A stretch of DNA of 32,000 bases from Promethearchaeota archaeon (GTDB lineage Archaea; Asgardarchaeota; Lokiarchaeia; Sigyniarchaeales; SOKP01). Under the pieces are notes generated by a model. It was not told the origin of the DNA and did no database searches. It saw only the letters and a list, made by a program, of their open reading frames with translations. The stretch lies in the NCBI GenBank assembly GCA_030606485.1, contig JAUWGH010000002.1, forward strand, positions 450,001-482,000, in the 5' to 3' direction. Of this stretch, positions 6,556 through 28,532 are shown piece by piece (within the stretch, counting starts at the first letter, position 1; every line of letters starts with the position of its first letter). The position numbers and the translations under genes were made by a program.

Positions 6556-6564
6556 ATTTTCGAT

Positions 6565-7209
6565 GTGATTTTAATGAGATTAGTGGACAATTTGAAAGGA
6601 ATTGAATCTTACTATTTAGTAATTTCTGGTAATGGAACATTTCCAGAGAAGGTTATATTAAAAAATCTTTGTAGGAAATATAATGGACATGACAAAGCTA
6701 TATTTTATATAAGCACACCAATTAAGAAACAAACGGGATTGAATGCTCTTAATGCTATACAATTATATACTAAAAAATTTCAGATAAATTCTATAATTTT
6801 CATTGTAGATGGGGAACACATTAAGCAGAATGCTAGGATCGAGATTAAGAAGCATTTAAAATCTAAAGGAATAGGGATTAATGAAGTTATACCCCTCCAA
6901 GGAGCATTCTTAATAAAATGTAAATCAGGACCAGATGACATCATTCTATTTTGCATCACATTAGGACCAGAAGTTTTCATTGAAGAGGAAGTTGCTGAAT
7001 TGATTGAACTCAAATTGGGTGTAAAAATTGACCTCTCACGAAAAAGAGAACCCAATGGGAGAAAAACTATTAAAAATCAGATAAAACAAGTTTTAAGGGA
7101 AAAGGGGAAAACTATTGAAGAGTTAGTAAATAACACTGGAAAAACTAAACTTGAACAAACATTTCCCAACATATGTGCAGTTCTTAAAAAAATAGAAGAA
7201 GAGCAGTAA
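6565..7209 (+). CDS. Hypothetical partner of the ATPase, TOPRIM-like (DUF3226/DUF4435-type) putative nuclease; true start may be ATG 6574
   Basis: 9 bp downstream of the ATPase. Strand-loop-E helix (YLVISGNGTFPEKVIL), later IIFIVDGE (DxD/E) and a further acidic motif FIEEEV, as in TOPRIM partners of such ATPases. Confidence 0.5.
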   Translation: MILMRLVDNLKGIESYYLVISGNGTFPEKVILKNLCRKYNGHDKAIFYISTPIKKQTGLNALNAIQLYTKKFQINSIIFIVDGEHIKQNARIEIKKHLKSKGIGINEVIPLQGAFLIKCKSGPDDIILFCITLGPEVFIEEEVAELIELKLGVKIDLSRKREPNGRKTIKNQIKQVLREKGKTIEELVNNTGKTKLEQTFPNICAVLKKIEEEQ

Positions 7210-8821: not shown

Positions 8822-9904
8822 TCATTTTCCTCTTAGGATTTCTATCGTTTTATTAAAGAATCCTGAATTAAAAACTTTCAAAGTCTTTTCATTTTTTATA
8901 GCCAACAATTCTATTGGATAATAATCATTATCTCTGGAATTTCTAACTCTTTGTTTTAAAAATTTTTGTATGGCAATTGAGATAGCATATTTTGAATTAT
9001 CACATCCAATCCATTTACGATTTAACTTCTCTGCCACATGTAAAGTTGTTCCAGAACCGCAAAAAAAATCTGCAATTAAATCACCCTCATTACTCCCTAT
9101 CTGAATTAATCGCTCTAATAACATTGGATGTTTTTGAGTAGGATATCCAGTCCATTCTGAAGAAGCTGGTTGAATACATGGTATCCGCCAAACATCATCG
9201 GCTTTTTTATCATGAACAATTCTGTATTTTACATGACCATTTTCATCCTTTACATTCTTTAAGACACCATTTACCGATTCTCGCATTAATTGTTTTACAG
9301 GTTTATCTCTAAGAATGCGGAATTCATTAAAAGTATAAGATTTTCCTTTAGAATAAATTAAAATATTATCATGAGCTCTTGGAAGATTTTTCTTTCCAGC
9401 TGAATATTTATTGTAGTAATACCATATAATTTCATTAACAAATCTATCCTTTCCGAAAATTTCATCCAATATTGCTCTTATGTAATGTGAAACGTGCCAA
9501 TCTAAATGAATAATAATAAGACCATTACTTGTTAAAAGTTCTTTCATTAAAATTAAACGTTCATACATCATTTGGAGATATATGTCTAAATTCTTTCCCC
9601 AATTATCTTTATACCCAAATTCCTTAAGTATATTTCCATCCATCCGAATTTTTAAAATATAATCAGAACCCGTTGCAAAGGGAGGATCAATATAAATTAA
9701 ATTAATTTTATCTGTAAATTTTGAGAGTAAATAGAAAATTACAAGCTTATTATCCCCCCAAAAAAGTTTATTAGACCAGACATTAATCATTTCACCGGAA
9801 GAATTAATTGGTCTAATTAACTTTACTCTCTCGAAGGTTATGCTATTATCCTTTAATTCATTAACGTCTAAATCTTTTTTATTAGTCCAAGAGAGTCTAA
9901 CCAT
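8822..9904 (-). CDS. Site-specific DNA methyltransferase (N6-adenine/N4-cytosine, beta class, type III Mod-like), apparently orphan
   Basis: WGDN motif, catalytic motif IV IYIDPPF preceding SAM-binding motif I DFFCGSGTT, and YPTQKH. Confidence 0.9.
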   Translation of the reverse strand: MVRLSWTNKKDLDVNELKDNSITFERVKLIRPINSSGEMINVWSNKLFWGDNKLVIFYLLSKFTDKINLIYIDPPFATGSDYILKIRMDGNILKEFGYKDNWGKNLDIYLQMMYERLILMKELLTSNGLIIIHLDWHVSHYIRAILDEIFGKDRFVNEIIWYYYNKYSAGKKNLPRAHDNILIYSKGKSYTFNEFRILRDKPVKQLMRESVNGVLKNVKDENGHVKYRIVHDKKADDVWRIPCIQPASSEWTGYPTQKHPMLLERLIQIGSNEGDLIADFFCGSGTTLHVAEKLNRKWIGCDNSKYAISIAIQKFLKQRVRNSRDNDYYPIELLAIKNEKTLKVFNSGFFNKTIEILRGK

Positions 9905-9954
9905 TTTATTATTCCTAAATAGTAGATAATATTTTCAAAAATTTGCATTTGAAT

Positions 9955-12900
9955 CTAATAATTATAAGAGCCTTGATTTTCAGGATAAATAAACTCGAAT
10001 TTATTAGTGAGTGATTTATGATTAAGCCATTTTTTTATGTTTTTATCCCAGAGATGACAATCCAATGGATTCGGATGTTTGAATTTATCAAATAAATTAT
10101 TAACAAAAAGATCTCCTTTAACTAAATCAAAAAATAAAAGATAATGTTCTATTTTAAAATAATTGAATAATTGAGTAATAATTTTCTTAAAATGATTGAA
10201 AGCGGAATCTGGTAAATAAAATTTCAAAAATAATCCATTTTCAAATTTAATCATTTTATCTTCTTCTTTAAAATAATATTCCCCCTCTATTTCATAAATG
10301 AATCCATAATTAAGGAAATTAAAAATCTTAATAATTATTTCGATTTGTTCGCGTGTCAAATCTGGAACAATTGCATAAAATTTAAATTTAAGACCCGTAT
10401 TTTCTCTAAGTTTTATTTGGGGAAAAATTAATTTTTTATTAATCAAATCTTTAATGTTATTTAATCTGGATTTATGTCTTAATTTTATCATATCCAAAAA
10501 ATTTTGACCATTTAAATCTATGATATTTTGAAAATCTTGGTCGAATTTTCCTTTAATATTTTTTTCATCTCTTTCAGAAACATTAAAAACTTTACAATCT
10601 ATAGAAGGATCAAAATTTTTATCAAATAATATTTTTTGAACAAATATTTCAAAAGTTTGGTATCCAAAATAAAAGCCATCAGGGCTAATATTAAAATTAA
10701 AATTCAAAATTGGAATGATTTTTTTAACTGAAAATGATAAATATTCATCAATTTCTCTTTTACTTTTTAAAACCCAGTTCAAATATGAGAAATTAGGATT
10801 TTTGGAAGGAAATATATATTTAAAAAGATAAGAATTTGCACTTTCCAATGAACAAGTGTATTTTATGCTCTTGAATCCTAATGGAAATAGCATCTTCCAT
10901 TCAATTTCATTAGGAATACTTGGTTTTATGTATAAGTAAAAATTTTCTAAACCGAATTTTTGATACGAAGGAATAAGTTTAATATTTTCAATATTTTTTG
11001 AATGTTTAATAATGTTTGAAAGATCATCACTTTTTACAAGTTTTTCTTCAAGATTATTGTGTAAATCTTCAATTTCTTGAGAGATTTCTAAATTTAATGT
11101 TATTTCTTTTTTTAATTTTAGATTTTTTGAATAAGTTTCAAAAGAAATTTTTTTAACCAAATCAGTGTTAAAATTAGTGAGTTCTATACTCTCTTCCTTA
11201 TGATATGAAGATATTTTGCGATCTTTAATAAGAGAGATACTAAATTTTGATAATTCATCAAAAAAATCTTTACTATAAAAGAAATCATTATTTTCAACAT
11301 CAAAGAAATTTTCTAAGCTGAAAATTGAAATTATGTATGAATCAATAAATTGTTTAAAGAGAATGAGATCATGATTAAATAATTTGTAAATTAGACCCAA
11401 TAAATTTATTTTTTCATTGTCATTTAACTCAATACAATATAAATATAGAAAAGTGTATTTTTCCCCGGAAATTAGGTCAATGCTTCTATTTATGACTACT
11501 CTTGGAAAAATATCCTTAAGAGAATTAATCTTTTTTTCTGTTGTTACAGAATCCTTTATTAATAAAGTATAAAAAATTGGGCAGATTTTTCTGGCAGAAA
11601 TGGAAGTAATTAAAAATGGAACTGCTCCTGGAGGGTCAGATTGAACAGTTTGAGTTAATCTCGCATCAATATCTTGAAAAGTAATTTTTTTTAATCTATA
11701 CTCCTTTAGGATTTTTTGGATTTTTTGAAATTTTGTAGTATAAATATTTTCTGCTAATTCTTTTTTTGTTAAAATGGCTTCAATCACTTTTAAATTAAAT
11801 ATTTTCAGATTCTCTGATGTTTTAAGTAATTGTAAAAAGTTTTCATATTCACTCTTCTCATGCAGAAAATTAGAATTGTTCATAAAATACACTGAAAATA
11901 AGTTAAATAAATTCTTCTTGAACTGAGAGTAATTATATTCAATATTTTCATCAAACTTTGGACCGATTCCGTTTTGTTCAATGAAATCAAATAGCATAAT
12001 TTCATTTTTTAGTTCTGGGTGAGTTTTTAGAATTTTTTCTGTGAGATCTATTAATTTTAAAAAGAAAGAAATTTGTTCCTTAATATAAAAAAATCCGAAA
12101 TTTTTATTTGAATCGATTAATGTGAGGAATTTTCGTTTTAATTCCGGGTCTTCGTAAAAAATATTCAAAATCTTTTTTAAATCCTTAATAATATTTTTTT
12201 GAGTTAATAAATAACTAAATACATCACTTTTCACTTTCTGTAATTGCTTCCATTTTTCCTCAAAACTAAAACCAGTTGTTGCAAACCATCTAATCCTATT
12301 GAGGAGTATAATATCAAATAGATCCATAACCTTTTCTTCTTTAGAAGTGTATTTTAAAGAAGGAGAAAATATTAAATGTTCGTTAAAATCCTTATCTCCT
12401 CTCAGTAATAACTTTTTATTCAAAATATTTTTTTTAAAGTAATTTAGGTTTAGGAAATTTTCATGGAAAACAAATTTTAACAAAAAAAATTTCTTGATAA
12501 TTCCATAATTAATTAAGGTTTTAAAAAATTTTTTTAAATCATCAATATATTTCATAGGGATTACAAAAATTCCTGTAACTTCAACCCCAAACTTTGATTC
12601 TTGAGTTCTATTTACCCAATAAAATGGTAAATGTTGTAGAATTTTTTGTACCTTATAATTTCCAAGTTGAGGGTTAAAAAATATATAACAATAAACCATA
12701 TTACAAAAATAATACTGCCAATTAATTTGATAATTTGGGGAAATCACATTTTGAGGTAAAAAAGTCTTAAAATACCGATTAAATTTCTTTGGAGTAAAAG
12801 AGGTATTAATTTTTTGCTCTAATTTTAATTTTTTAAACATATTTTCAAAATCCGCTCTTCTCGTATAGCGTTTTGTTATTTGAAAAATACCGTATATTAA

Positions 12901-13497
12901 TGAAAAGAATTCTAATTCATCTTCATTCTCAAAATAACCTTGTATTATGTTTTGTGTCATAATATCGCGAAATAGATTATATTCCACATCGAGATTCAAA
13001 AAAAGAGATGAATGTTTATGAATGTAATCAAATAGATTTTTTAAATTTTTTATTATAAAATCGCCAAATCTAAATTTCCACCATGCATATAAAGGATCTG
13101 TTTTGAAGTAATTTTCCCATTCATTAAAATTCGGAAGTCTATTTAATAGATCTGAAACCTTTACTAACACTATCGTTTTTAACAATGAATAATTCTGTAA
13201 AGGGATTGGTATAAAAAGGTAAAATGACTCTCGTAGGAGAATAAATTTTATTATTTTCTGCATATCTGAATGGATCTGCAGAGTAATTTTTTTATTTTGT
13301 TTGGAAGTTCTTTTAACACCAAAATCAAACCTTTCATTTTCAAAATTTGCTAAGTAATCAATTTTTGAAATAAAAACTTTTTGAGGGTGAATTGATGGTT
13401 TTCTTTTTAGATATTCTTCTAATTCTTCCAAACAATAATTAAACCAATATTCTACATTGTCGGGAGAAATCGTATTTTTAATAAATTCTTCTAGCAT
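9955..13497 (-). CDS. Large hypothetical protein (1180 aa) with about four degenerate Lrp/AsnC-like wHTH-RAM modules
   Basis: Long clean ORF. Repeating pattern: ISPNYQINWQYYFCNMVYCYIFF; VPFLITSISARKICPIFYTLLIK; LIPSYQKFGLENFYLYIK; IFPQIKLRENTGLKFKFYAIV. The CDS is certain; the fold call is an inference. Confidence 0.55.
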   Translation of the reverse strand: MLEEFIKNTISPDNVEYWFNYCLEELEEYLKRKPSIHPQKVFISKIDYLANFENERFDFGVKRTSKQNKKITLQIHSDMQKIIKFILLRESFYLFIPIPLQNYSLLKTIVLVKVSDLLNRLPNFNEWENYFKTDPLYAWWKFRFGDFIIKNLKNLFDYIHKHSSLFLNLDVEYNLFRDIMTQNIIQGYFENEDELEFFSLIYGIFQITKRYTRRADFENMFKKLKLEQKINTSFTPKKFNRYFKTFLPQNVISPNYQINWQYYFCNMVYCYIFFNPQLGNYKVQKILQHLPFYWVNRTQESKFGVEVTGIFVIPMKYIDDLKKFFKTLINYGIIKKFFLLKFVFHENFLNLNYFKKNILNKKLLLRGDKDFNEHLIFSPSLKYTSKEEKVMDLFDIILLNRIRWFATTGFSFEEKWKQLQKVKSDVFSYLLTQKNIIKDLKKILNIFYEDPELKRKFLTLIDSNKNFGFFYIKEQISFFLKLIDLTEKILKTHPELKNEIMLFDFIEQNGIGPKFDENIEYNYSQFKKNLFNLFSVYFMNNSNFLHEKSEYENFLQLLKTSENLKIFNLKVIEAILTKKELAENIYTTKFQKIQKILKEYRLKKITFQDIDARLTQTVQSDPPGAVPFLITSISARKICPIFYTLLIKDSVTTEKKINSLKDIFPRVVINRSIDLISGEKYTFLYLYCIELNDNEKINLLGLIYKLFNHDLILFKQFIDSYIISIFSLENFFDVENNDFFYSKDFFDELSKFSISLIKDRKISSYHKEESIELTNFNTDLVKKISFETYSKNLKLKKEITLNLEISQEIEDLHNNLEEKLVKSDDLSNIIKHSKNIENIKLIPSYQKFGLENFYLYIKPSIPNEIEWKMLFPLGFKSIKYTCSLESANSYLFKYIFPSKNPNFSYLNWVLKSKREIDEYLSFSVKKIIPILNFNFNISPDGFYFGYQTFEIFVQKILFDKNFDPSIDCKVFNVSERDEKNIKGKFDQDFQNIIDLNGQNFLDMIKLRHKSRLNNIKDLINKKLIFPQIKLRENTGLKFKFYAIVPDLTREQIEIIIKIFNFLNYGFIYEIEGEYYFKEEDKMIKFENGLFLKFYLPDSAFNHFKKIITQLFNYFKIEHYLLFFDLVKGDLFVNNLFDKFKHPNPLDCHLWDKNIKKWLNHKSLTNKFEFIYPENQGSYNY

Positions 13498-16472: not shown

Positions 16473-19400
16473 ATGCCTGATTCGAAGCGTAAAATAAGGC
16501 GCAAATATGTTTTATCTTCAATTATAATTGTTTTCATATTGTTTTCTTGTTTTTATCAGATTAAAAACTCTTATTACTATTCCAGTGAGAATTATAGACC
16601 TATAAACACAAGTAATGGCCATGAACGGATTTTTATTGATGGAGATGCTACTGGAGTAGGTGCCCAAAATTGGACTTATGCGTTACAGCAAAATTGGTGT
16701 ACTGGATCTGGAACTTGGGATGAACCATATATTATAGAGAATAAAAGAATAGATGGTCAGGAAATAGGAAACTGTATTGAAATAAGAGATTCCATAGCTT
16801 ATTTTCAAATAAAGAATTGCACTCTCTATAATTCTAGCATAACGACGTCGGGAATACAATTAACATACGTTGATAATGGAATCATATTAAGCAATAATTG
16901 TTCTTTTAATAATGGTAATGGTATAGATATTTTTATGTGTGATAACAATACCGTAATAAATAATACTGTGAGCAATAACACACTTTCAGGCATAAATTTG
17001 ACTACCTTTAGCCACGATAACAACATTACCGGTAATCTTGTTAAAAATAATTTAAAAGATGGTATAAAAATTGGAAAAGAATTATTTTCAAACTGTAATG
17101 ACAATATCCTTTCTAATAATTCAGTGATATCAAACGATGGTAATGGTATATCGATATTAAGTGATTATAATGATCTTCTTAACAATAGCGTTTTATATAA
17201 TAAATTAAATGGTATTTTTTTGAATCAAAGCCGTTATGGAAATATATGGAAAAATAATTGTTCTTACAATTATGACTCTGGAATTTTAATTGATCGAGGT
17301 GATTATAATAATATTTCAGGTAACGAAATCAGTTATAATTACAAAGGTATTGATATTTCAGGGTTGTGGTTTTGGGAAGAATGTTTAGATAATGAGATCT
17401 CTAATAATAATATACATAATAATAGGGGAGGAGGGATTGAACAAGATTATTGTAAAAATACAATAATTTCAAATAATAACTTTACTAACAACAAATTATA
17501 TGGGGGATATAATAATAATAATACAAAGATTTATAAAAATACTTTCGAAAATAGTGGGATTTACTCACATGATAGCAATTACTCAGTTATCTATGACAAT
17601 AAAATAAACGCTAGTGATGATTATTGTATAAATATAAATCGGGCTTATTATTCCAATATAACGGGAAACACGATATATAATGGCGGCATATATTATGGAG
17701 GTATTCGCATTAATGAATGTAATTCTTCAATTCTTTCTAATAATACTTTAGACTTGAATACAAAAAAGGGAATTTATATATATTTAAGTAATCACACGAC
17801 TTTGACTCAAAACAAAATGTATAATTGTGGTATCAAATTCGAGGATTCGTTAGAAAGCGCTTCTACTTCTAATATTGATGCATCGAATACCATTAATGGT
17901 AACCCTGTGTATTTTTATTATAACAAATCCAACTTAAAACCAATTAATTTTACTGACGCAGGGCAAGTAATAGCGATTTATTGTAATGATTCGATTTTAT
18001 CTAATTTTAACATCAGTTCTATTTTAAGCGGAATTTCAATGCATTTTTGCAAAAACATCTCTATTTCAGAAGTAAATATTAGTGAAAACGATTATGGTAT
18101 TTATCTAAGCCAATGTATTAATATTACGATGAATAATATCACTCTTTCAGATAACGAATATGGAATCTACCTTCCAAACAGTAATAATACAGTCATTTCA
18201 ACGATCACATCTTTATTTAACGAGTACGGTATTATTTGTTATAGAAACCACAATATTACTATAAACGAATGTAATATTAATTATAGCGAATATGGAATTA
18301 TATCATCGGCTTGTAATAATATCAATCTTACTGGCAATACTATAGTCAATTGTGATTATGGTATTTATACAACCTCAAATCGTAATGTCACTTTATGTTC
18401 AAATAGATTATTTAACTGTGGAGTAATATTAAATGATGTTATTTCAAATTTTTTAACTTATAAAATAAATACCTCTAATAAGGTTAATAACAAACCTTTA
18501 TATTTTTATACCAATAAACTTGGACTAAAACCTTTCAATTTTTCTAATGCGGGTCAAATAATATTAGTTAATTGTAATAACTCACGTATTTCGGATGTAA
18601 AAATGTCAAATTGTTCTCGTGGTGTTTCATTACTTTCTTGTAAAAACATTTCTATTTACAATGTTACTTCAATAAATAATATAGATAGGGGTTTTTACTT
18701 AGGTGGAGGTTTTAACAACACTGTTCAAAAGTGTAATTTTTCATATAATTTAATTGGATTATATCTGGGAAATACACATAATAATACAATTTTAGAAACA
18801 AATACATCTCACAACACACAAGTGGGGATATATATTTCTGGAAGTAGAAATATCACTCTTATAGGAAATAGACTAAGTTACGACCTAGTGGGTATTAAGC
18901 TAGATAATAGTTATGATTGCAATCTTACAGATAATAATATGAAAAATTGCGGCATAGAAATTAAGGAATCTATTGACTGGGAAACTTATTCAACAAATTC
19001 TATTGATACAACAAATAAAGTAAATGGAAAAGATGTTTATTATTATTTTAATAAAACTAATCTAAATTCAAATGATTTTATTAACGCAGGTCAAGTGATC
19101 CTTGTCAAATGCAACGACTCCTTAATAAATAACTTAAATATTACAAATATTTCTAATGGAATTTATATGTATTATTGCAATAATCATATTATTTCAAATT
19201 GTCAAATTACAAATAATAATTATGGAATTTATCTATATTTTGGGAATAATTTTTTACTAACAGGAAATACCATAAATCGAAATTTTGTTGGTTTATCGTT
19301 AATCTCTAATAATAGTACAATAACTCAATGTGACTTTATAGAGAACAATCATTCCATTAGTGGAGAAGGAAGCAATAATCTAATTTATAACAATTATATT

Positions 19401-21542
19401 GACGGTAGTGCGTACCTTTGGCCTTCCAACAATTGGAATAATTCTTATGCAGGTAATTATTGGAGCAACTATAGCGGCGTTGATTCTGATAATGATGGAA
19501 TTGGTGATACCCCTTATTTAATTTATGTGACTGGAGCGCCAGAAGTCTATTATGATTATAAACCCCTTATGAATCCACCAAATATAGATACAGACGGAGA
19601 TGGATTATTAAATTCAGAAGAATATGATTTAGGAAATGATGGATATCTAACAAATGTAACCAATCCAGATTCGGATTACGATGGATTAAGTGATTATGAC
19701 GAATGGATAAATCTAGCAAATCCATGGGATAATGACACAGATAATGACAGTATGCCAGATGGATGGGAAGTTTTAAATAGTTTAAATGTTATAGATGGTA
19801 ATGATAATATAACAGACGCAGATAACGATGGAATATCAAATCTTAACGAGTTTTTTTACGGGACCAATCCTCAAATGGCGGATACAGATCTGGATGGAAT
19901 GCCAGATGGATGGGAATTAGATAATTCTTTAAATTTATTTGCAAATGATGCCATGGAAGATCCTGACCTAGATACAATACTAAATTATTACGAATACTTG
20001 AATGGAACAGATCCAAGGAACAACGATACAGAATTTGATGGGATGCCTGACGGATGGGAGATTAATAACTCATTAGACCCTTTAAATAATGACGCTATGA
20101 GCGATGCGGATAACGATCAGTTGGAAAATATTTACGAATTTTTGAACGGGACAGACCCTCATAACGACGATTCTGATGGTGATACTATACTAGATGGTAT
20201 TGAGGTTGGTTTACACACAGATCCTTTAGACGGTTTCTGGTTTCCGATGCCAAATTTGAAAATTTCAAGTTTTAGTGTAAGTGATGTTTACGAGGGTCAG
20301 GCATTTATTTTAAATTTTACGATTACTAATAATGGTATCTGGAAAGCAAATGGGATTATACTTTCGATTCGATGTGAAGCGCTGAATTTAACGCTATATG
20401 AAAATATGGCTGAGCCATTTGATTTAGAAGTTAACAAGTCAAAAAATTTCCTCATAGATTGTACCTCAATATCTACAGCTGGAATTTTTGTACTAACATT
20501 GGATCTCGATCCAGGAAATTTATTAAACGAAACCTATAGTTCTCCTGATGGTTCGTATCGTTCTGATTGGACAGAGGACAATATAAAACAAATAGAAATG
20601 CAAATTATCGAGGGGGATGGAGGTATTGCAGTAGAGATGTTTATCATTGTTGTTTCTGTAGCAGGGGTTATTATTGGTATGATAGGTCTTACAATTTTAG
20701 TAAGACCAAAAATAAAAAAAATCATATATTCAAAAAACCAACGGAACAAAGCTAAAGCAGAACTCGAAGACTTCGAGTTTAAAGTTCGAAATTTTATAAG
20801 AGAACAACTGGAAGAATTCTACGGAGCAGAATGGTGGGAAAAAGGAATACCAGAATATATTAGATTAGGTGTAGAAAATAAAATAAGAACCGAACAAATT
20901 AAAGCGCCAAAAATGAAAGTTCAAAATATTAATTATCTCGACTTCAATCATTATTTTCTAATTATTAATGAAAAAGAAAATTGGGACAATATTTTTTCAG
21001 ATGTTTTTCAAGATAAAAATAAACTCGCAGAAAATTTCGAGAATTTAAGAGTATTTAAGAACAATATTTCTCAAAATGTAGCTACTTCCCAGGAAATAGA
21101 TGCGTATCTGTTTTATATTTATGGCATAACAACCTTTTTTACTAAAGGTTTTAATGTATTTCTTAGTTATTCGACATTGGATTCAGAATATTTTCAAATC
21201 TCAGAGATCGTGTCCCGCCTTGAGACTTATCCAAAAATGGATAAGATTTTCTTTTGGGAAGCAGATAGTGGAGAAAATATTGTTGAATATATGGAAAGGA
21301 TTTTAAACATTAGCAAAGTGTTTGTTATGTTTTGTTCTGAAAACTCTATAAAATCAAAAGCGGTAGAAGATGAATGGCAAGCTGCTTTTCAATTAAGAAA
21401 AAAGGGATTGATGAAAATAGTACCCGTGTATGAAGATGACCAATTTATCCCTAAATTATTAATGCCACTTTTAAATGTGAAATTTTCTAAAGACGATTTT
21501 GATGGGTTTATCGACAAACTCTATGAAGAAATATTAAGGTAA
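16473..21542 (+). CDS. Single-pass surface receptor: signal anchor - NosD/right-handed beta-helix - DxDxDG Ca-binding repeats - CARDB - TM - Swt1-like HEPN (degenerate) - TIR domain
   Basis: Basic plus hydrophobic N-terminus; N/I/C-rich parallel beta-helix repeats; about 10 DxDxDG repeats; PNLKI...TITNNG...LDPGNLLNET (CARDB); TM about 20628-20703 followed by RPKIKK; FEFKVRNFI...WWEKGIP...YLDF (Swt1-HEPN); C-terminal NVFLSYS...FWE.DSG...VFVMFCSENSIKSKAVEDEW...IVPV (TIR, about 21150-21542). Confidence 0.9.
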   Translation: MPDSKRKIRRKYVLSSIIIVFILFSCFYQIKNSYYYSSENYRPINTSNGHERIFIDGDATGVGAQNWTYALQQNWCTGSGTWDEPYIIENKRIDGQEIGNCIEIRDSIAYFQIKNCTLYNSSITTSGIQLTYVDNGIILSNNCSFNNGNGIDIFMCDNNTVINNTVSNNTLSGINLTTFSHDNNITGNLVKNNLKDGIKIGKELFSNCNDNILSNNSVISNDGNGISILSDYNDLLNNSVLYNKLNGIFLNQSRYGNIWKNNCSYNYDSGILIDRGDYNNISGNEISYNYKGIDISGLWFWEECLDNEISNNNIHNNRGGGIEQDYCKNTIISNNNFTNNKLYGGYNNNNTKIYKNTFENSGIYSHDSNYSVIYDNKINASDDYCININRAYYSNITGNTIYNGGIYYGGIRINECNSSILSNNTLDLNTKKGIYIYLSNHTTLTQNKMYNCGIKFEDSLESASTSNIDASNTINGNPVYFYYNKSNLKPINFTDAGQVIAIYCNDSILSNFNISSILSGISMHFCKNISISEVNISENDYGIYLSQCINITMNNITLSDNEYGIYLPNSNNTVISTITSLFNEYGIICYRNHNITINECNINYSEYGIISSACNNINLTGNTIVNCDYGIYTTSNRNVTLCSNRLFNCGVILNDVISNFLTYKINTSNKVNNKPLYFYTNKLGLKPFNFSNAGQIILVNCNNSRISDVKMSNCSRGVSLLSCKNISIYNVTSINNIDRGFYLGGGFNNTVQKCNFSYNLIGLYLGNTHNNTILETNTSHNTQVGIYISGSRNITLIGNRLSYDLVGIKLDNSYDCNLTDNNMKNCGIEIKESIDWETYSTNSIDTTNKVNGKDVYYYFNKTNLNSNDFINAGQVILVKCNDSLINNLNITNISNGIYMYYCNNHIISNCQITNNNYGIYLYFGNNFLLTGNTINRNFVGLSLISNNSTITQCDFIENNHSISGEGSNNLIYNNYIDGSAYLWPSNNWNNSYAGNYWSNYSGVDSDNDGIGDTPYLIYVTGAPEVYYDYKPLMNPPNIDTDGDGLLNSEEYDLGNDGYLTNVTNPDSDYDGLSDYDEWINLANPWDNDTDNDSMPDGWEVLNSLNVIDGNDNITDADNDGISNLNEFFYGTNPQMADTDLDGMPDGWELDNSLNLFANDAMEDPDLDTILNYYEYLNGTDPRNNDTEFDGMPDGWEINNSLDPLNNDAMSDADNDQLENIYEFLNGTDPHNDDSDGDTILDGIEVGLHTDPLDGFWFPMPNLKISSFSVSDVYEGQAFILNFTITNNGIWKANGIILSIRCEALNLTLYENMAEPFDLEVNKSKNFLIDCTSISTAGIFVLTLDLDPGNLLNETYSSPDGSYRSDWTEDNIKQIEMQIIEGDGGIAVEMFIIVVSVAGVIIGMIGLTILVRPKIKKIIYSKNQRNKAKAELEDFEFKVRNFIREQLEEFYGAEWWEKGIPEYIRLGVENKIRTEQIKAPKMKVQNINYLDFNHYFLIINEKENWDNIFSDVFQDKNKLAENFENLRVFKNNISQNVATSQEIDAYLFYIYGITTFFTKGFNVFLSYSTLDSEYFQISEIVSRLETYPKMDKIFFWEADSGENIVEYMERILNISKVFVMFCSENSIKSKAVEDEWQAAFQLRKKGLMKIVPVYEDDQFIPKLLMPLLNVKFSKDDFDGFIDKLYEEILR
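17823..19150 (+). repeat. Three tandem internal beta-helix super-repeats in the receptor ectodomain
   Basis: NCG....SN.(I/V)N.K..Y(F/Y)Y.NK..L....F..AGQ.I...CN.S units start at 17823, 18414 and 18945 (aa 451, 648, 825). Confidence 0.8.
19482..20230 (+). repeat. About 10 DxDxDG acidic calcium-binding (thrombospondin type 3-like) repeats
   Basis: DSDNDG, DTDGDG, DSDYDG, DTDNDS, DADNDG, DTDLDG, DPDLDT, DTEFDG, DADNDQ, DSDGDT, several alternating with MPDGWE and GT.P motifs. Confidence 0.85.
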
Positions 21543-21700
21543 AAATTTACAGTATTCTATTACAATACTTTTTGCTTCATTGGATTTTTATTTTATCCAA
21601 AATATGTAAGATTTTTATAATAAATCGACCAATATTTTCATAAATAAATAAAGCGATTTCAATAGGATTTATATTAAGAAATCAAATGGGTATTTTACAA

Positions 21701-21960
21701 TTGGAAATTAAGAAACTGATTTAAAAATGTTAAAAAATTAATAGATTATTATGAAGATGATTGGTGGGATAATGGGATTCGTAATTTGGAAAGTAGACAG
21801 TGGTGAAAGTGTTGTTAAATTGATGAAGGAAGCTTTAACCATAAGTTATGTGTTTATACTTTTTTGTTCAGAAAATTCAAAAAAGTCTGAGGCTGTAAAA
21901 GGTGAATGACAAGCAGTTTTTGATTATGGAGGAAATGGATAATTTTCCTATTTTACTGCC
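21701..21960 (+). pseudogene. Decayed HEPN-TIR paralog, N-terminal part of TIR
   Basis: 21772-21942 reads MGFVIWKVDSGESVVKLMKEALTISYVFILFCSENSKKSEAVKGE*QAVF, against FFWEADSGENIVEYMERILNISKVFVMFCSENSIKSKAVEDEWQAAF in the intact TIR (TGA at 21907 replaces Trp). An upstream shifted frame reads DYYEDDWWDNGI, like EFYGAEWWEKGI of the HEPN. Confidence 0.85.
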
Positions 21961-21965
21961 ATTTT

Positions 21966-24482
21966 TTAAATATTCTCAAAGAATTTTAAAATTTCTTGCC
22001 CAAAAACTCTAGACATGATTTCCGCCATTCTTTTTTCATTTCTATAACTTCTAACTTGTTGAAGATTTTTAAAATCATCCATTAATTCTTCTTCACATAT
22101 TTTAGTATAATCTTCTATTTTTTTTGTTAAAGATTTTGAAGGTTTTTCAAAAAGAAAAAAGAATATTCTAAAATCTTCTGTTCTAAAAGGAGTCATCGTT
22201 ATAGCACCTCCTTCAGCGGATAGGATAGGAATCTCTCCAAATCCAATTTCACTAGCAAAACTTTGAATTGCTGATAAAAGACCAGACATTAAATCACCTG
22301 GTTGAGATATATCTGAGAAATCCTTTTCATAGATACTTGCTCCATAAATATGTTGAATTAAAAGTTTTCGAAGATTTTCGATATCAGGATCAGTAGTAAA
22401 TGGTTTTGTAAGAAACTCATGGATTTCTTCTGAAGTATTATTGATTACTTTAAATAGTCTTTTAGGTTTTTCAAGATGCTTAATGTTATTCTTTTCTAAC
22501 CAATTTTTATCATTAATCAATTCTGATGCTTCGCGTCCACTATTTTTTATAATAGCCACTTGTGCTCCAAAAGCAATTGCCATTCGATATTCAAGTGCAG
22601 CAATTTTTCCTCCATTAATTCCAATTAATTTTACATTACTATGATCTAATCCAGATTTTAAAATATCATACCAATATTGTAATGCTTCAAGAATACTAAA
22701 ATCTGTTCCTATTGTTGAGTGAATCTTTTTATAACGTTCGTCAATCTTGATATCATAAGGTAGTAGATGTGGAATGTATCCAATAGTTTTTATAGTTTCG
22801 GGATATTTTTCTTGAATATCACCAACAATTCTACAAATTCCTGATTTAGTACCTCCAGATATAATTGTTCCTTTAAAATCACAAAACCCATCAGTAAGAG
22901 TATTTTTGTAGTTTTGGAGCAGTTTTTCTAATCTTGCATCAGTCCCACCTGCTATAATTACAATGGGTTCTTTAAGATCATTTTCTTTTATTTCCATACA
23001 ATTATCCAATTTCTTTAGAGCATCACTGTACATTTTTTGATTGTATGAGAGATTTTTATTAGGATGAAACAGTATCCCTAATAATAATAAACTTCTGATT
23101 AATTCAATCCCAGGCATTTGGTTATGAATATTTTTAAGTTCATCTAAAGTATTTAGAGTTGTATCAATCATCCACATATTCTGACTATGATTTATTCCAT
23201 TTAAGTAATAAATAAGACTGTCGTCTAACTTACCAAGAAAAAACGAAAAAAGTCCCATATCAAAAAATGCCCAAGGTATCTCAACTTTAACTTCTATTTG
23301 ATTTAATCTTCTTTCAATACCTTTTTGAATCAATTCTTTATTATATTTAATATGTTTTAAATTTCCAGTTTTCTGAATTTTCATTATTAGGTAATTTAAT
23401 AAAGGATATGGATGCGAAGGATCAGCCTTTAAAGCTTTTTTGTAATATTTATATGCTTTTTCATAATCTTTAAGAATTTTATAAGATCCACCTAAGGAAG
23501 CAAAAGCATCTGAATCCATTGGATTTTTTTCAACTGCTGTTTTCAAATATGATTGCCCCTCTACATATCTTGAACTTCTTGGATTATTTTTATTTTTTTT
23601 ATATAATGCTATTCCAAGATCTCGTAAAACGGACGCTTGTTTTAAATCAGGATACTTTTTCCATTCATCTATTTTTAAAATATTTTCAATAATCACTATA
23701 GTTTTATCCCATTCATTAATTGCCATTGCTAACTTAGCGATTTTATGAGCAATATCGAAATCGTTTTTATTCGCAGAATATACTAATTCTAATTTTTTTA
23801 TCTCATCTTTAATTCTTTCATTGGACATGTAAGCTCCATAGCTAGATTCGTAATCACGCATTTTCTTTATTAGAGTATTTAAGGATATATCAGCAGTCTC
23901 TAAAAGCGCTTTTATTCGATTAAATTCTCGAATATATGGTTTAGGGATTTTAAATTCAGTTTTATAAAGACTTCCATATTTATTTACTTCCCAGCCATGT
24001 TGCAAGAAAGTACGTATTTGAATTTCTGCTTTTAAACCAAAAATTTCGTCGGGAACATGTAATTCTAATCTCTTATAGAGATCTGATTTGGGATTGAGTT
24101 CTACAATAAAATTTTTCAGTAATTCTTGAAGTTCTAATTTATCGGTTTTACTTTTTTCATTTTCTTCAATTATAATAAAATGTTTTTGCATTAACTTGCT
24201 GACAGTATTTAATTCGTCCAAATTGGGTAATATTATTTTTAATCCAATTAAATCATTCATTTCTTCAGTTACATTTGAATTATTTATATTTGAATTAAAA
24301 ATTTCATCAATAAAACCATAAATAGTCTTTGTCTTTCCCTCAATCATGAATTCAGAAGAATAACTTCCAATAATATGAGTCAGAATTTTTTCTAATATTT
24401 CACAATATTGTTCATAAAGAGGAAGTGAGTAACAGTAAGAATTTATTTGACTTTTGATAAAATTAAGCGTTTTTTCATCCAT
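21966..24482 (-). CDS. Multidomain protein: RelA/SpoT-like nucleotidyltransferase (degenerate) - TPR - SLOG - longin-like domain
   Basis: DLIGLKII and AEIQIRTFLQHGWE (RelA/SpoT); TPRs (DAFASLGGSYK...KAYKYYKKAL); IIAGGT, IISGGTKSGI...VG, TIGYIP, GINGG..AALE...A, SGR (SLOG, aa about 504-690); IQHIYGASIYEKDF...DLMSGLLSAIQSFASEI (longin-like, aa about 703-838). Confidence 0.8.
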   Translation of the reverse strand: MDEKTLNFIKSQINSYCYSLPLYEQYCEILEKILTHIIGSYSSEFMIEGKTKTIYGFIDEIFNSNINNSNVTEEMNDLIGLKIILPNLDELNTVSKLMQKHFIIIEENEKSKTDKLELQELLKNFIVELNPKSDLYKRLELHVPDEIFGLKAEIQIRTFLQHGWEVNKYGSLYKTEFKIPKPYIREFNRIKALLETADISLNTLIKKMRDYESSYGAYMSNERIKDEIKKLELVYSANKNDFDIAHKIAKLAMAINEWDKTIVIIENILKIDEWKKYPDLKQASVLRDLGIALYKKNKNNPRSSRYVEGQSYLKTAVEKNPMDSDAFASLGGSYKILKDYEKAYKYYKKALKADPSHPYPLLNYLIMKIQKTGNLKHIKYNKELIQKGIERRLNQIEVKVEIPWAFFDMGLFSFFLGKLDDSLIYYLNGINHSQNMWMIDTTLNTLDELKNIHNQMPGIELIRSLLLLGILFHPNKNLSYNQKMYSDALKKLDNCMEIKENDLKEPIVIIAGGTDARLEKLLQNYKNTLTDGFCDFKGTIISGGTKSGICRIVGDIQEKYPETIKTIGYIPHLLPYDIKIDERYKKIHSTIGTDFSILEALQYWYDILKSGLDHSNVKLIGINGGKIAALEYRMAIAFGAQVAIIKNSGREASELINDKNWLEKNNIKHLEKPKRLFKVINNTSEEIHEFLTKPFTTDPDIENLRKLLIQHIYGASIYEKDFSDISQPGDLMSGLLSAIQSFASEIGFGEIPILSAEGGAITMTPFRTEDFRIFFFLFEKPSKSLTKKIEDYTKICEEELMDDFKNLQQVRSYRNEKRMAEIMSRVFGQEILKFFENI

Positions 24483-24888
24483 AAAATTCTCATCTTTTAG
24501 AATAAAATTTTTTAAATTTTAATTGAATCTCCTTTTTAATAAATCTTTAAGATATTATAAATTTCTTACAATATAATTGAGAATGACTAATTATTAAATC
24601 TTTTCTTCAAATGAAATCATGTAAATAACGCACTCTTAAGTATATATTTATGATATCCAAATAATACATGTTTATGTTCTTTTTCTCCACATTTTTTCAG
24701 AAACTCGTAAACACGTTTAAGTTATGTTGAAAATATAAATAGCAAGAAATTTGATATCTTAAATATTTTATAATTTCAGAAAGGAAATAAATTCTTAATC
24801 AACTCTTTTTTGGCAGAAATTTTTAAATGCCTACAATAAGTTGTAAATCCAATTTTTTTAGTGATTAAAAAGGATAAGAAGACCGAAA

Positions 24889-24915
24889 TAAAAAAAAATT
24901 AAAAAAAAAAGTAAA
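24889..24915 (-). terminator. Oligo-U tract, possible archaeal intrinsic terminator
   Basis: Minus strand reads ...ACTTTTTTTTTTTAATTTTTTTTATTT about 55 nt after the TIR-remnant stop (24968) and about 215 nt after the GTPase stop; weak evidence in an AT-rich genome. Confidence 0.3.
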
Positions 24916-24967
24916 AGTTAAAAGCTCGAACTTTCAAGTCACCGTTTTAGTAAATTTCTTTAGCATT

Positions 24968-25060
24968 CTACCATAGAAATTCCTTATAGAGTTTCTTAAT
25001 AAACCAATCGAAATCATCTATAGTAAACTCAACATTTAAAAGCGGCCAGAAAAAAAACTC
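24968..25060 (-). pseudogene. Decayed TIR paralog, C-terminal end
   Basis: Minus strand reads EFFFWPLLNVEFTIDDFDWFIKKLYKEFLW* (TAG at 24968-24970), against MPLLNVKFSKDDFDGFIDKLYEEILR* at the end of the intact TIR; no start codon and an upstream in-frame stop. Confidence 0.85.
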
Positions 25061-25129
25061 TTAGAACTAAAGAATGAATAAATGTTATTATTGATTGCAA
25101 TACGGTTGTTTTTATTATTATGGTTATTA

Positions 25130-25690
25130 TTATTGTGAGATTGAACGAGACTTATTAAATTTATTATATAACTCTTTAATAATTGCATGGAATCCTTGGG
25201 AAACTCGAGTCCCTGTTAATGCTGATGTTCTGTAATATCCAAGAAAGTTTCGCTTTTTTACTATTTTCAGAACCTTATTATCGTTTAAATTTTTCTCATC
25301 AACTAAATCAACTTTATTGCCAAATAATACGGTAGGTATATTGCCACAATAATTTTTAATATTATCATGCCAATTCGTAATATGTTTAAAACTTTCTTGA
25401 CCAAGATCATTTTCTTCAAGAGAATATACGATAATAGCAGCTTTACTCTCTTTATAGAAAGAGGGGCGTAAAAAATTAAAATCATCTTGTCCGGCTATAT
25501 CCCAAAATAAAAGTTTGAAATAATTGCCATCTATTTCCTCTTCATAGCTAAAAAATTGCGCTCCTATGGTTTTAATATATTCCTTTTGAAACCTACCTTT
25601 TGTAAATTTAGTAATTAATGATGTTTTTCCTACTGCTCCGTCTCCTACAACTGATATTTTAAATGTAAATTTATCGCCGCCTTTATTCAT
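25130..25690 (-). CDS. Rab-like small GTPase (Ras superfamily; eukaryotic signature protein)
   Basis: G1 GDGAVGKTS, G2 YIKTIG, G3 WDIAGQ, G4 NKVD, G5 TSAL; no C-terminal Cys prenylation motif. Confidence 0.92.
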   Translation of the reverse strand: MNKGGDKFTFKISVVGDGAVGKTSLITKFTKGRFQKEYIKTIGAQFFSYEEEIDGNYFKLLFWDIAGQDDFNFLRPSFYKESKAAIIVYSLEENDLGQESFKHITNWHDNIKNYCGNIPTVLFGNKVDLVDEKNLNDNKVLKIVKKRNFLGYYRTSALTGTRVSQGFHAIIKELYNKFNKSRSISQ

Positions 25691-26865: not shown

Positions 26866-27663
26866 TTGAAAATAATGAGTTATGAAGATATAATTTATGA
26901 AAAAAAAGAGGGTGTTGCTCGTATAACTATCAATCGGCCTCAGCGTTATAACGCGTGCACACAGCACACCGTTCATGAATTGATCGACGCTTTCAATCGG
27001 TGCATGGACAATGAAATTGGCGTCGTGGTATTCACCGGTGCCGGGGACAAGGCGTTTTGTACCGGTGGAGATCAAACAACCCGCGAGAAGGGCGGATACA
27101 AGGGAGAGTATATATTACCGTTAGAAGTAGGCTGGCAACGCGTGACGCATTTGATCCGCACCCTACCCAAACCGGTCATCGCTCGAGTGAACGGGTACGC
27201 GATCGGGGGAGGTCATGTATGGCACGTTAATTGTGATCTCAGCATTGCAGCAGAGCATGCGCAGCTTGGGCAAGCAGGTCCTCGCGTAGGTTCTTTTGAT
27301 CCAGGATATGGAACTGGTGACTTAATGCGTGCCGTAGGCATGAAACGTGCCAAAGAAATTTGGTTTCTATGTCGCCGATATACTGCGCAACAAGCATTGG
27401 AAATGGGACTTGTGAACGCTGTTGTACCCTATGAAAAATTGGATGAGGAAGTGGATAAATGGTGTCAAGAACTGTTAGAAAAGAGCCCAACGGCGCTGAA
27501 AATGCTGAAATATGCTTTCCTGGCCGAGACTGATGGAGTAACAGGCATCACACAGTTAGGAGTTGGGGGACTGGGTCTTTATTATGGCACCGAGGAGGCT
27601 GTGGAAGGAAAGAATGCATTTTTAGAAAAACGTAAACCTGATTTTAATAAATTCAGAAAATAG
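26866..27663 (+). CDS. Crotonase-family enzyme, MenB (naphthoate synthase) / BadI (2-ketocyclohexanecarboxyl-CoA hydrolase) subfamily; true start may be the downstream ATG (MSYEDI)
   Basis: ITINRP..YNA, AFCTGGDQ, NGYAIGGGHV, GPRVGSFDPGYG, AKEIWFLCRRY, AFLEKRKPDF. Confidence 0.85.
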   Translation: MKIMSYEDIIYEKKEGVARITINRPQRYNACTQHTVHELIDAFNRCMDNEIGVVVFTGAGDKAFCTGGDQTTREKGGYKGEYILPLEVGWQRVTHLIRTLPKPVIARVNGYAIGGGHVWHVNCDLSIAAEHAQLGQAGPRVGSFDPGYGTGDLMRAVGMKRAKEIWFLCRRYTAQQALEMGLVNAVVPYEKLDEEVDKWCQELLEKSPTALKMLKYAFLAETDGVTGITQLGVGGLGLYYGTEEAVEGKNAFLEKRKPDFNKFRK

Positions 27664-28532
27664 TGAGGATTATGGATATTAAAAAAATTTGTGTAATTGG
27701 AGCAGGTATTATGGGTCATGGGATTGCTCAATTAGCTGCAACTCATGGGTATGATGTAAACCTTGTAGATGTAGATGATGAAGTTTTAAATAAAGCCAAA
27801 GCCTCTATTGAAAAGAGTCTTAACAGATTTTTTGTAGCAAAAGATAAGATTACTACTGAAGAGGCTGAAAAAATTCTTGATAGGATTAGTTTAAATGTTA
27901 ATAGGGATGAAGCTATTAAAGACGTACAAATGGTAATTGAGGCTGTGTTTGAAGACATGAATTTAAAGCAACAATTATTCTCTGAGCTGGATGCAATATG
28001 CGATAAAGATGTAATTCTTTCGTCTAATACCTCTTCATTAAGTATAACAGATATTGCCTTAAAATCTAAAAATCAAGAAAGGATCATAGGAATTCATTTC
28101 TTCAATCCGGCTCCAGTTATGAGATTAATAGAATTGATAAAAGGGAAGAATACATCTGACGAAGTCTTAGAAACGTCAAAAAAGTTCTCTGAGAGCTTAG
28201 ATAAAACTGTAGTAATTGTAAATGATGCTCCTGGCTTCGTAACAACTCGGCTTATTTATGTATTATGTAATGAAGCTGCAAACATGAAAATGGAAGGAAT
28301 CGCCAGCATAGAAGATATTGATATTGCTTGTAAATTGGCATTCAATTTTCCCATGGGTCCTTTAGAACTCAGTGATCTCGTAGGGAACGATATTTATTTG
28401 CATATTGGAGAATATTTAGAAAAGGAACTTGGAGATAAATATAAACCGTGCCCTCTTCTAAAAGAAATGGTCGAAAATAATTTATTGGGAAGAAAATCAA
28501 AAAAAGGGTTTTATAATTATAATAAACCATAA
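27663..28532 (+). CDS. 3-hydroxyacyl-CoA dehydrogenase (3-hydroxybutyryl-CoA dehydrogenase-like); likely start ATG 27672
   Basis: GAGIMGHGIA Rossmann motif, IEAVFE, SNTSSL, IHFFNPAP, PGFV, PMGP; GAGG-like SD element just before ATG 27672. Confidence 0.92.
   Translation: MRIMDIKKICVIGAGIMGHGIAQLAATHGYDVNLVDVDDEVLNKAKASIEKSLNRFFVAKDKITTEEAEKILDRISLNVNRDEAIKDVQMVIEAVFEDMNLKQQLFSELDAICDKDVILSSNTSSLSITDIALKSKNQERIIGIHFFNPAPVMRLIELIKGKNTSDEVLETSKKFSESLDKTVVIVNDAPGFVTTRLIYVLCNEAANMKMEGIASIEDIDIACKLAFNFPMGPLELSDLVGNDIYLHIGEYLEKELGDKYKPCPLLKEMVENNLLGRKSKKGFYNYNKP

Follow-up and report, generated by a model that had tools for sequence, protein, structure and literature searches.

The question raised by the stretch of DNA analyzed here (the window, that is, the whole 32,000 nucleotides at positions 450,001 to 482,000 of contig JAUWGH010000002.1 of a Promethearchaeota archaeon) is what a membrane receptor with a TIR domain, a multidomain protein with a SLOG domain and a Rab-like small GTPase, encoded next to each other at 16473-25690, have to do with one another. 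An earlier note had joined the three in one pathway, in which the TIR would produce a messenger derived from ADP-ribose (ADPR), the SLOG protein would read it, and a longin domain would relay it to the GTPase. Our analysis suggests that the first two proteins belong together. That is, we consider it probable, at about 60%, that the receptor gene (P0001) and the SLOG protein gene (P0002) represent a second-messenger module that resembles Thoeris and whose form is peculiar to Asgard archaea of the Lokiarchaeia type, that this module most likely serves defence or conflict signalling, and that the Rab-like gene (P0003) lies outside it. The window is AT-rich (GC, about 27%) and belongs to a genome of 3.75 Mb in 13 contigs. 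The closest relatives of its proteins are found in Promethearchaeota/Lokiarchaeia genomes assembled from metagenomes, and its DNA is present in cold-seep and marine-sediment metagenomes, so that the assignment to the Asgard archaea is secure. The sequencing runs listed as containing this DNA include no RNA run.

The features of the receptor gene are as follows.

16473-21542, + strand: TIR receptor gene P0001 (1689 aa), with an anchor, an ectodomain, a transmembrane (TM) helix, a HEPN_Swt1-like stretch and a TIR_2 domain

16563-20642, + strand: predicted extracellular part of P0001 (aa ~31-1390), from Pfam NosD (198 bits) and Beta_helix (194 bits) matches and from composition

20643-20699, + strand: TM helix of P0001 (aa 1391-1409), hydropathy 2.76, with a Lys/Arg-rich stretch next to it

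20778-21050, + strand: HEPN_Swt1-like helical region of P0001, Pfam 22.8 bits (cut-off, 27.5) and PADLOC PDC-M34B 46.8 bits

21156-21521, + strand: TIR_2 domain of P0001 (aa 1562-1683), 54.2 bits (cut-off, 28), with a Glu in a DEW motif

P0001 starts with a hydrophobic anchor, which is followed by about 1350 aa of NosD/right-handed beta-helix and Asp-rich TSP3-like repeats. The ectodomain contains 69 N-x-S/T sites against 35 expected, and 33 of the 34 cysteines of the protein, the remaining one being in the tail; the tail after the TM helix is positively charged. Because the excess of N-x-S/T sites and the split of the cysteines fit a location outside the cell, it seems from the sequence that the ectodomain is extracellular and glycosylated and that the TIR is cytoplasmic. 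The receptor-like topology that had been claimed is thus upheld by the composition and the TM helix. The TIR_2 domain scored 60.1 bits in the profile search of the genome, and its top PDB sequence match was Cat1; the Pfam model ThsB_TIR gave 16.1 bits, which is under its cut-off. The Glu of the DEW motif, pointed out earlier as putatively catalytic (in AVEDEW), aligns with the catalytic-position Glu (DEL) of Cat1 and of the plant TIR AT1G72930, and none of the 17 partner TIRs lacks it. We also considered that an active HEPN nuclease might lie between the TM helix and the TIR and rejected this, as the match is below the cut-off and the R-x4-6-H motif is absent.

The partner gene lies on the opposite strand and has the following features.

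21966-24482, - strand: four-domain cytosolic protein P0002 (838 aa), with RelA/SpoT-like, TPR/TPR-S, LSDAT-type SLOG and longin domains

23979-24332, - strand: RelA/SpoT-like nucleotidyltransferase of P0002 (aa 51-168), RelA_SpoT 38.8 bits (cut-off, 27); best sequence match 3l9d (RelP/RelQ-type, E 1.4e-5)

23382-23672, - strand: TPR/TPR-S repeats of P0002 (aa 271-367), TPR_2 33.5 bits and TPR-S 27.2 bits (cut-off, 27.6)

22413-22985, - strand: SLOG domain of P0002, LSDAT/TRPM clade (aa ~500-690), LSDAT_prok 29.7 bits (cut-off, 25.4), with invariant Gly-rich loops and supported by its fold

21969-22385, - strand: longin-fold domain of P0002 (aa ~700-838), predicted order beta-beta-alpha-beta-beta-beta-alpha-alpha, from a fold match

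P0002 had been described as a TPR-SLOG-longin protein. All three of these domains were found, the TPR-S match being borderline and just under the Pfam cut-off, and the RelA/SpoT domain at the N-terminus had been overlooked. The SLOG and C-terminal domains were folded using alignments of 26 Asgard homologues. The SLOG has the invariant motifs GG(T), SGGT.SG, GINGG and SGR. The SLOG model had a pLDDT (a model confidence score) of 90, and its top 50 PDB fold matches were all MHR1/2 regions of TRPM channels, including that of ADPR-bound TRPM2 (E 5e-7). The sequence profile gave a marginal TRPM2-like match against the PDB (E 0.2), and the question was settled by the fold search. The SLOG-type region of TRPM2 binds ADPR, and this channel also carries a NUDT9-type NUDIX domain. 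From the likeness of the model to TRPM2 and from the NUDIX and TIR neighbours of its relatives, which are described below, the SLOG of P0002, whose fold is of the ADPR-binding TRPM2 type, is predicted to bind an ADPR-type ligand. A six-frame search of the own genome with PF18171 returned nothing and missed P0002 itself, which we take as insensitivity of that search and not as absence.

The C-terminal model (pLDDT, 85) reached a Z score of 11.9 to TRAPPC1/Bet5. It matched TRAPPC1, Trs23, AP mu/sigma, the VAMP7 longin and Mon1-Ccz1 with Z scores of 10-12 over 115-127 residues, and TRAPPC4 and SRX were also among its structural matches. A roadblock fold was ranked under longin, with Z scores of at most 9.6 over about 100 residues. 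Because solved longins match better and over more residues than roadblock domains, the model indicates a longin fold, and both this domain and the TRPM2-type SLOG agree at the fold level with what had been read from the sequence. Elsewhere in the same genome, a 1567-aa open reading frame (ORF; L035, G000:C10:909360-909683) has a stretch that is 30% identical to the longin of P0002 (aa 690-797). A 501-aa protein (P0059) on a 1974-nt contig was examined as a fusion of a GTPase with TPR-SLOG and was rejected: no more than the first 66 positions of a G domain of the EF-Tu type are present, joined straight to the TPR-SLOG part, so that we probably see a chimeric contig or a truncation and not a small GTPase.

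P0002 is single-copy in its own genome, and it has dozens of full-length homologues with 39-59% identity, nearly all of them in Promethearchaeota. In a survey of the neighbourhood, 28 loci with a P0002 homologue were gathered and their six-frame ORFs were searched with profiles; the flanks were readable in 19. A TIR gene stands directly upstream of the homologue on the same strand in 15 of these 19 loci (L005, L007, L008, L009, L011, L012, L014, L015, L016, L019, L020, L021, L022, L024 and the window), which span at least four different downstream contexts. The partner TIR genes are present in one to four copies per locus. For example, L011 has three or four in tandem, L009 has two that flank a gene for a laminin-G protein, and L005 encodes a 1638-aa NosD-TM-TIR protein resembling P0001. 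The TIR domains are closely similar, as judged by eye on the printed sequences, and the N-terminal parts vary; they consist of a beta-helix ectodomain, of a signal peptide, an ectodomain and a coiled coil, or of three to four TM helices, a coiled coil and a winged-helix-like segment. By analogy with the multiple thsB genes of Thoeris, this pattern is that of one conserved signalling domain behind diversifying sensors. The independent contexts are the window, L015 and L021, and a further locus, L010, in which a DUF4062-nSTAND3-LRR (leucine-rich repeat) gene lies downstream of the P0002 homologue; we take DUF4062 to be a member of the TIR clan.

Since only 2 intact TIR_2 genes exist in the 3.75-Mb genome and P0002 is single-copy, the probability of their adjacency by chance is on the order of one in a thousand, and the adjacency is thus not due to chance. 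The TIR-to-SLOG pairing put forward in the earlier note therefore recurs across the surveyed Asgard loci and, with unrelated TIR architectures, beside distant homologues, so that the TIR-SLOG link is well supported.

The distribution of P0002 is sporadic. In the presence/absence counts, which covered 24 genomes of the same family and 41 relatives overall, it was found in 3/24 and 5/41, respectively. A 100%-complete congener lacks it, and two other congeners have a 383-aa SLOG-longin form only. These forms (L037 1483-2631 in genome G003; L038 1531-2517 in genome G002) are 33-34% identical to aa 462-835 of P0002 and adjoin a 109-aa LRR protein, and the copy in G002 has two in-frame TAA stops. 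In another genome of the family (L036/L040, G024:C47), the P0002 homologue is split into 616 and 339 aa and the upstream TIR gene into 408 and 114 aa, either by joint decay or by frameshift errors of the assembly.

Homologues outside the Asgard archaea share the RelA/SpoT-TPR-SLOG core and have a RyR terminal domain in place of the longin. Their core (first ~690 residues) has the same domain order as that of P0002, with 28-38% identity over about 79% of the length. This RyR-type family is found widely among bacteria and methanogens; the metagenome collection contains at least 582 stretches with it, and its members are annotated at the source as 'RyR domain-containing protein' or 'ppGpp synthetase/RelA/SpoT-type nucleotidyltransferase'. 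Among the immediate neighbours of 72 RyR-type loci we counted NUDIX in 22, a TIR_2, TIR, ThsB_TIR or DUF4062 protein in about 18-23, stand-alone RyR in 7, SLATT_1 in 3 and NACHT in 3. NUDIX genes are immediately upstream on the same strand in many loci (L043, L051, L054, L063, L065 and others; 17 of 61 upstream neighbours), where they correspond by size to ORFs of ~135-170 aa, and NUDIX is fused to some homologues (P0100, P0111). The occurrence of TIR and NUDIX around a TRPM2-like SLOG therefore suggests an ADPR-type ligand. At a Methanobacterium locus, a TIR-NACHT gene follows 45 nt downstream of the RyR-type gene with a CHAT protease nearby, and a Bacillota contig has Roc-COR-TIR and LRR-Roc-COR genes in the vicinity of its RyR-type gene. 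Judged from their domains, these partners look like NLR-like (nucleotide-binding LRR receptor-like) sensors of the immune type.

The N-terminal domain bears on the question of what the protein does upon binding its ligand. The synthetase motifs of RelA/SpoT homologues (RSH) are R-x-K, D-x-x-G-x-R, G-Y-R-S-x-H, E-x-Q-x-R-T and H-x-x-x-Y-K, and every one of them is retained in the RyR-type proteins. In these relatives, the predicted output is thus very likely SLOG-controlled, alarmone-type synthesis by the intact RelA/SpoT domain. In P0002, EIQIRT and the Asp are kept, an Arg of each of the first two motifs is Lys, and GYRSxH is lost. This acceptor motif is absent in 14 of 14 Asgard sequences aligned, the last motif is mostly lost in them, and the Arg of EIQIRT is kept in 15 of 26. 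Over the Asgard family the RelA/SpoT domain is the least conserved, with a mean pairwise identity of 43% versus 56% for SLOG. Since the acceptor-site motifs were lost, the output in the Asgard form is uncertain: the domain seems either to have changed its substrate or to be becoming a pseudoenzyme, and in the latter case the Asgard-specific longin would be the likeliest output, so that part of the relay proposed in the earlier note would survive. The earlier note had set the GTPase switch in place of a cell-killing effector. Because P0002 carries a RelA/SpoT-like nucleotidyltransferase, which the note overlooked and which is the obvious effector in bacterial relatives, the absence of a cell-affecting effector is not established.

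The present order of the genes around P0002 is explained by the following remains of a second TIR gene.

~21696-21939, + strand: relic A of a second TIR gene (E 4e-16), with a HEPN-like WW motif and the middle of a TIR

24968-25060, - strand: relic B, the last ~25 codons of a TIR gene (17/24 residues identical), on the strand opposite to relic A

21464-21565 and 24945-25046: arms of a 102-nt inverted repeat, relic B being one arm

Remnants of a second TIR had already been noticed on both sides of the P0002 gene, and relics A and B were indeed found there. Relic A has an internal deletion and stop codons, including a TGA straight after the Glu. The two relics are complementary halves of one TIR gene. 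When 21940-25060 (3.1 kb) is inverted, the order TIR(+), a spacer of ~460 nt and P0002(+) is restored, which is the order of other genomes. The present arrangement is therefore the product of a local 3.1-kb inversion that broke the second TIR gene; before it, the Rab-like gene and P0002 were convergent. We could reject a misassembly as the source of this order on the right-hand side, where independent contigs with 98.6% identity are collinear with 21936-25338 and where contigs of three independent studies reach from P0002 across relic B to the Rab-like gene. At the left junction, breaks or branches between 21920 and 21965 are seen in the contigs of four public runs, each from a different study. 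An alternative form in which 21401 is joined to 21920, skipping 518 nt, was seen in two runs (depth, 7.8 and 24.8), and two further runs have a differing sequence before 21920. From these breaks and alternative forms, the TIR side of the locus appears to be structurally polymorphic between natural populations, with the Rab side stable.

The third gene is the following.

25130-25690, - strand: Rab-like small GTPase P0003 (186 aa), Ras 146.7 bits

Its identification as a Rab-like GTPase gene was upheld by this profile and by the invariant motifs GxxxxGKT, DxxGQ and NKxD. Promethearchaeota homologues bear the annotation Rab family GTPase, and the family occurs throughout the Asgard archaea with 65-74% identity (Promethearchaeota, Hod-, Hermod- and Thorarchaeota). 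It is present in 23 of the 24 same-family genomes and 30 of the 41 relatives, compared with the 3 and 5 that have P0002. A search with the Rab profile over 316 kb around 22 non-redundant Asgard P0002 homologues found none, where about 5 were expected from the genome density, so that adjacency to a Rab gene is unique to the window. The gap between P0002 and P0003 is now 647 nt of relic DNA. The predicted complex of the longin domain with P0003 scored 0.12 and 0.06 (mark, 0.32), values that are informative in neither direction. Because it is a housekeeping-type gene with a different phyletic pattern, and because its tandem orientation was made by the local inversion, P0003 is best read as a bystander and not as a member of the module. 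The proposed relay from longin to Rab thus finds no backing in the neighbourhoods, the phyletic patterns or the history of the locus.

From these results, which establish the identities and folds of the domains, the recurring gene pair and the inversion, we infer an enzyme activity, a ligand, a direction of signalling and a biological role for the module, which would consist of at least one membrane-anchored TIR protein with a variable sensor and one cytosolic RelA/SpoT-TPR/TPR-S-SLOG-longin protein. A cue at the membrane or cell surface would activate the TIR, which would turn NAD+ into an ADPR-derived signal. The pocket of the SLOG, possibly together with TPR-S, would bind this signal, and the binding would switch the output of the four-domain protein. 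In the Asgard form, the longin domain may have taken over this output, or the substrate may have changed. A role in defence or conflict is favoured because of the NLR-like partners of the relatives, the polymorphic TIR side, the sporadic spread and the defence-type genes nearby.

Several results weigh against this reading and have to be set beside it. Eleven of the TIR-positive loci share the downstream genes Aminotran_3 and BKACE, and because of this synteny much of the Asgard count is largely the vertical inheritance of one block. In the syntenic genomes the locus sits in a stable chromosomal block, which is atypical of mobile defence islands. L001 and L003, the closest homologue loci outside the species, have no TIR gene within 10 kb. 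With PADLOC, P0001 and P0002 match only candidate models (PDC-M34B and PDC-S33), and no validated system or Thoeris. In addition, the Asgard RelA/SpoT domain appears degenerate, leaving no clear effector, and the orthologues P0010 and P0018 have lost donor-site residues too. As a separate observation, L001 (8108-8770) and L003 (8284-8946) encode near the P0002 homologue a 220-aa Lactamase_B protein with a weak match to Anti-Pycsar Apyc1, which could be a nucleotide-signal hydrolase.

The shared synteny raises the explanation that the two genes have no functional link and are neighbours through inheritance alone. We regard it as very improbable, since the pairing outlasts changes in TIR architecture and copy number, recurs in non-syntenic loci and, with TIR proteins that are unrelated, in distant relatives from bacteria and methanogens, and involves TIR_2 genes that are rare in the genome. 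The same TIR-to-SLOG mechanism might instead serve physiology, with surface receptors reading cues from the environment or from partner cells, such as polysaccharides, and adjusting metabolism or growth. The NosD/beta-helix ectodomain, which is of a carbohydrate-binding or lyase-like type, would suit such a task; the pair stands in many Lokiarchaeia in the stable syntenic block beside lysine-fermentation genes, and we can name no trigger of the phage type that an extracellular sensor would detect. Nevertheless, a family that is sporadic among close relatives, whose TIR genes are tandemly duplicated and turning over, whose locus is polymorphic between populations and whose relatives have NLR-like partners (NACHT, nSTAND3-LRR, Roc-COR) is less expected of physiology, and further defence genes lie within the window; we think this explanation rather unlikely.

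The two remaining explanations change the wiring, and both seem to us still more doubtful. In one, the longin would pass the SLOG signal to the Rab-like or another small GTPase as a guanine nucleotide exchange factor, a GTPase-activating protein or an adaptor, giving a GTPase switch and not growth arrest. The absence of Rab/Ras-like genes from the 316 kb searched around the Asgard homologues, the contrast between the near-universal P0003 family and the sporadic P0002, and the convergent order before the inversion with relic DNA now between the genes all speak against P0003 as that partner, even though its present position is bridged by contigs of the three independent studies. A longin output as such is plausible, as the Asgard clade exchanged RyR for longin and its RelA/SpoT lost the acceptor motifs; the best structural matches of the longin are GTPase-regulating longins (TRAPPC1/C4, Mon1-Ccz1, AP sigma/mu, SRX), and 57 Ras-family matches in the genome offer possible partners. 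In the other, the direction is reversed: P0002 would sense, its RelA/SpoT would make a nucleotide signal, and the membrane TIRs would be NAD+-depleting effectors, as in TIR-STING, SPARTA and Cat1. TIR domains do act as NADase effectors in several known systems, one of which, Cat1, gave the best PDB sequence match, and the RyR-type relatives keep all synthetase motifs. Against this wiring, the TIR proteins share no conserved nucleotide-sensor domain, and their non-TIR parts are fully variable, as is typical of sensors and as is seen in the multiple ThsB of Thoeris. It is P0002 that carries the conserved domains of the sensor type (SLOG, TPR-S), and the NUDIX and SLATT genes beside its relatives favour a SLOG ligand of the ADPR type. 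In the Asgard clade, no part of the protein is less conserved than the synthetase site.

The preferred reading, a TIR-to-SLOG module, can be compared with known systems. Type I Thoeris, one of types I-XI, consists of a ThsB TIR and a SIR2-SLOG protein, ThsA. The module resembles it in that a TIR, often in several variable copies, stands beside one SLOG protein, and also in the kept catalytic Glu, the sporadic distribution and the relatives among immune-type genes. It differs in that the SLOG belongs to the LSDAT/TRPM clade, while cyclic ADPR-sensing SLOGs have been placed in a YpsA-like clade (PMC9503650). In addition, RelA/SpoT-like, TPR-S and longin domains are fused here and SIR2 or Macro domains are absent, the TIRs belong to membrane receptors, the module is found in an Asgard archaeon, and the PADLOC Thoeris models are unmatched. 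By its domains the module would thus be functionally nearest to Thoeris, and its effector architecture and model matches place it outside the defined types. Type VIII effectors of Thoeris carry a TPR domain, which Aravind and colleagues had earlier predicted for bacterial TIR-mediated signalling (bioRxiv 10.64898/2025.12.03.692087). A literature search, which did not cover the founding SLOG/LSDAT paper, did not turn up any account of the Asgard form with its longin or of the RelA/SpoT-TPR-SLOG-RyR family, and the latter architecture is unmentioned in PMC9503650 and PMC7159879.

With respect to their closest relatives, the RyR-type proteins, the Asgard proteins differ in their C-terminal end and in the synthetase motifs, and also in their partners, which are membrane TIR proteins here, whereas soluble TIR-NACHT, Roc-COR-TIR or small TIRs, often with NUDIX, are found there. 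The clades of SLOG/LSDAT proteins were reportedly defined by Burroughs et al. in 2015. The MHR1/2 region of TRPM2, an LSDAT SLOG that occurs with NUDT9-H, is alike as the best structural match of the SLOG, and NUDIX genes accompany the SLOG in prokaryotic relatives as well; in contrast to TRPM2, P0002 has no ion channel, and the sequence similarity is marginal. Small alarmone synthetases and toxic RSH proteins (RelQ/RelP; CapRel and FaRel are examples of the toxic group) include the best sequence matches of the N-terminus of P0002 and share the Asp and EIQIRT with it. They are unlike P0002 in that GYRSxH is absent across the Asgard clade, two Arg are Lys in P0002, and the domain is fused here to sensor domains.

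Animal Toll-like receptors have the solenoid ectodomain, single TM helix and cytoplasmic TIR that are seen in P0001. However, the solenoid of P0001 is a beta-helix and not LRR, the enzymatic Glu is kept, and the partner is a SLOG protein instead of a TIR adaptor, so that the Toll-like layout is probably convergent. The longin regulators of GTPases (the TRAPP core, Mon1-Ccz1, AP sigma/mu and SRX, and with them the longin and roadblock proteins of Asgard archaea, PMC10933270) share the fold with P0002, with Z scores of 9-12 over 115-127 residues, but the identity is only 6-14%, the longin of P0002 is fused to SLOG, and the neighbourhood offers no GTPase partner.

Other parts of the window also contain notable genes. 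An ATPase of the AAA_15/AAA_21 type at 5596-7209, which is AbiL/GajA/OLD-like and matches the defence models AbiLi, AriA, GajA and OLD with up to 70 bits, is followed after 10 nt by a gene for a 214-aa partner; the two are probably a separate two-gene defence system. At 8822-13497 on the - strand, an N6/N4 DNA methylase (type III/II-like; PADLOC, 223 bits) adjoins a 1180-aa protein, which has no match in Pfam or PADLOC and is possibly a restriction or helicase partner. The GC content rises to 0.43 at 27001-28000, compared with about 0.27 elsewhere; this part spans genes for enoyl-CoA hydratase and 3-hydroxyacyl-CoA dehydrogenase, and a foreign origin or strong codon constraint may account for it.

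If correct, the TIR-to-SLOG module would carry signalling of the Thoeris type into the Asgard archaea, with membrane sensors shaped like Toll-like receptors and with a new receiver protein. The intact RelA/SpoT under SLOG control in the bacterial relatives predicts a type of effector in which a TIR signal leads to alarmone synthesis. Among prokaryotic domains, the SLOG resembles the ADPR-sensing module of TRPM2 most closely, and since its relatives occur with NUDIX and TIR genes, a prokaryotic origin of the TRPM2 sensor becomes directly testable. We also speculate, as a long shot, on an Asgard receptor pathway in which TIR receptors would make an ADPR-type messenger, the SLOG would read it, RelA/SpoT would be a pseudoenzyme, and the longin would act on a small GTPase in the remodelling of membranes or cytoskeleton. 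If true, it would join a Toll-like receptor, ADPR sensing and longin-GTPase switching in one prokaryotic pathway. The replacement of RyR by longin, together with the decay of the nucleotidyltransferase site, would be an example of the rewiring of an immune-type module in the lineage closest to eukaryotes.

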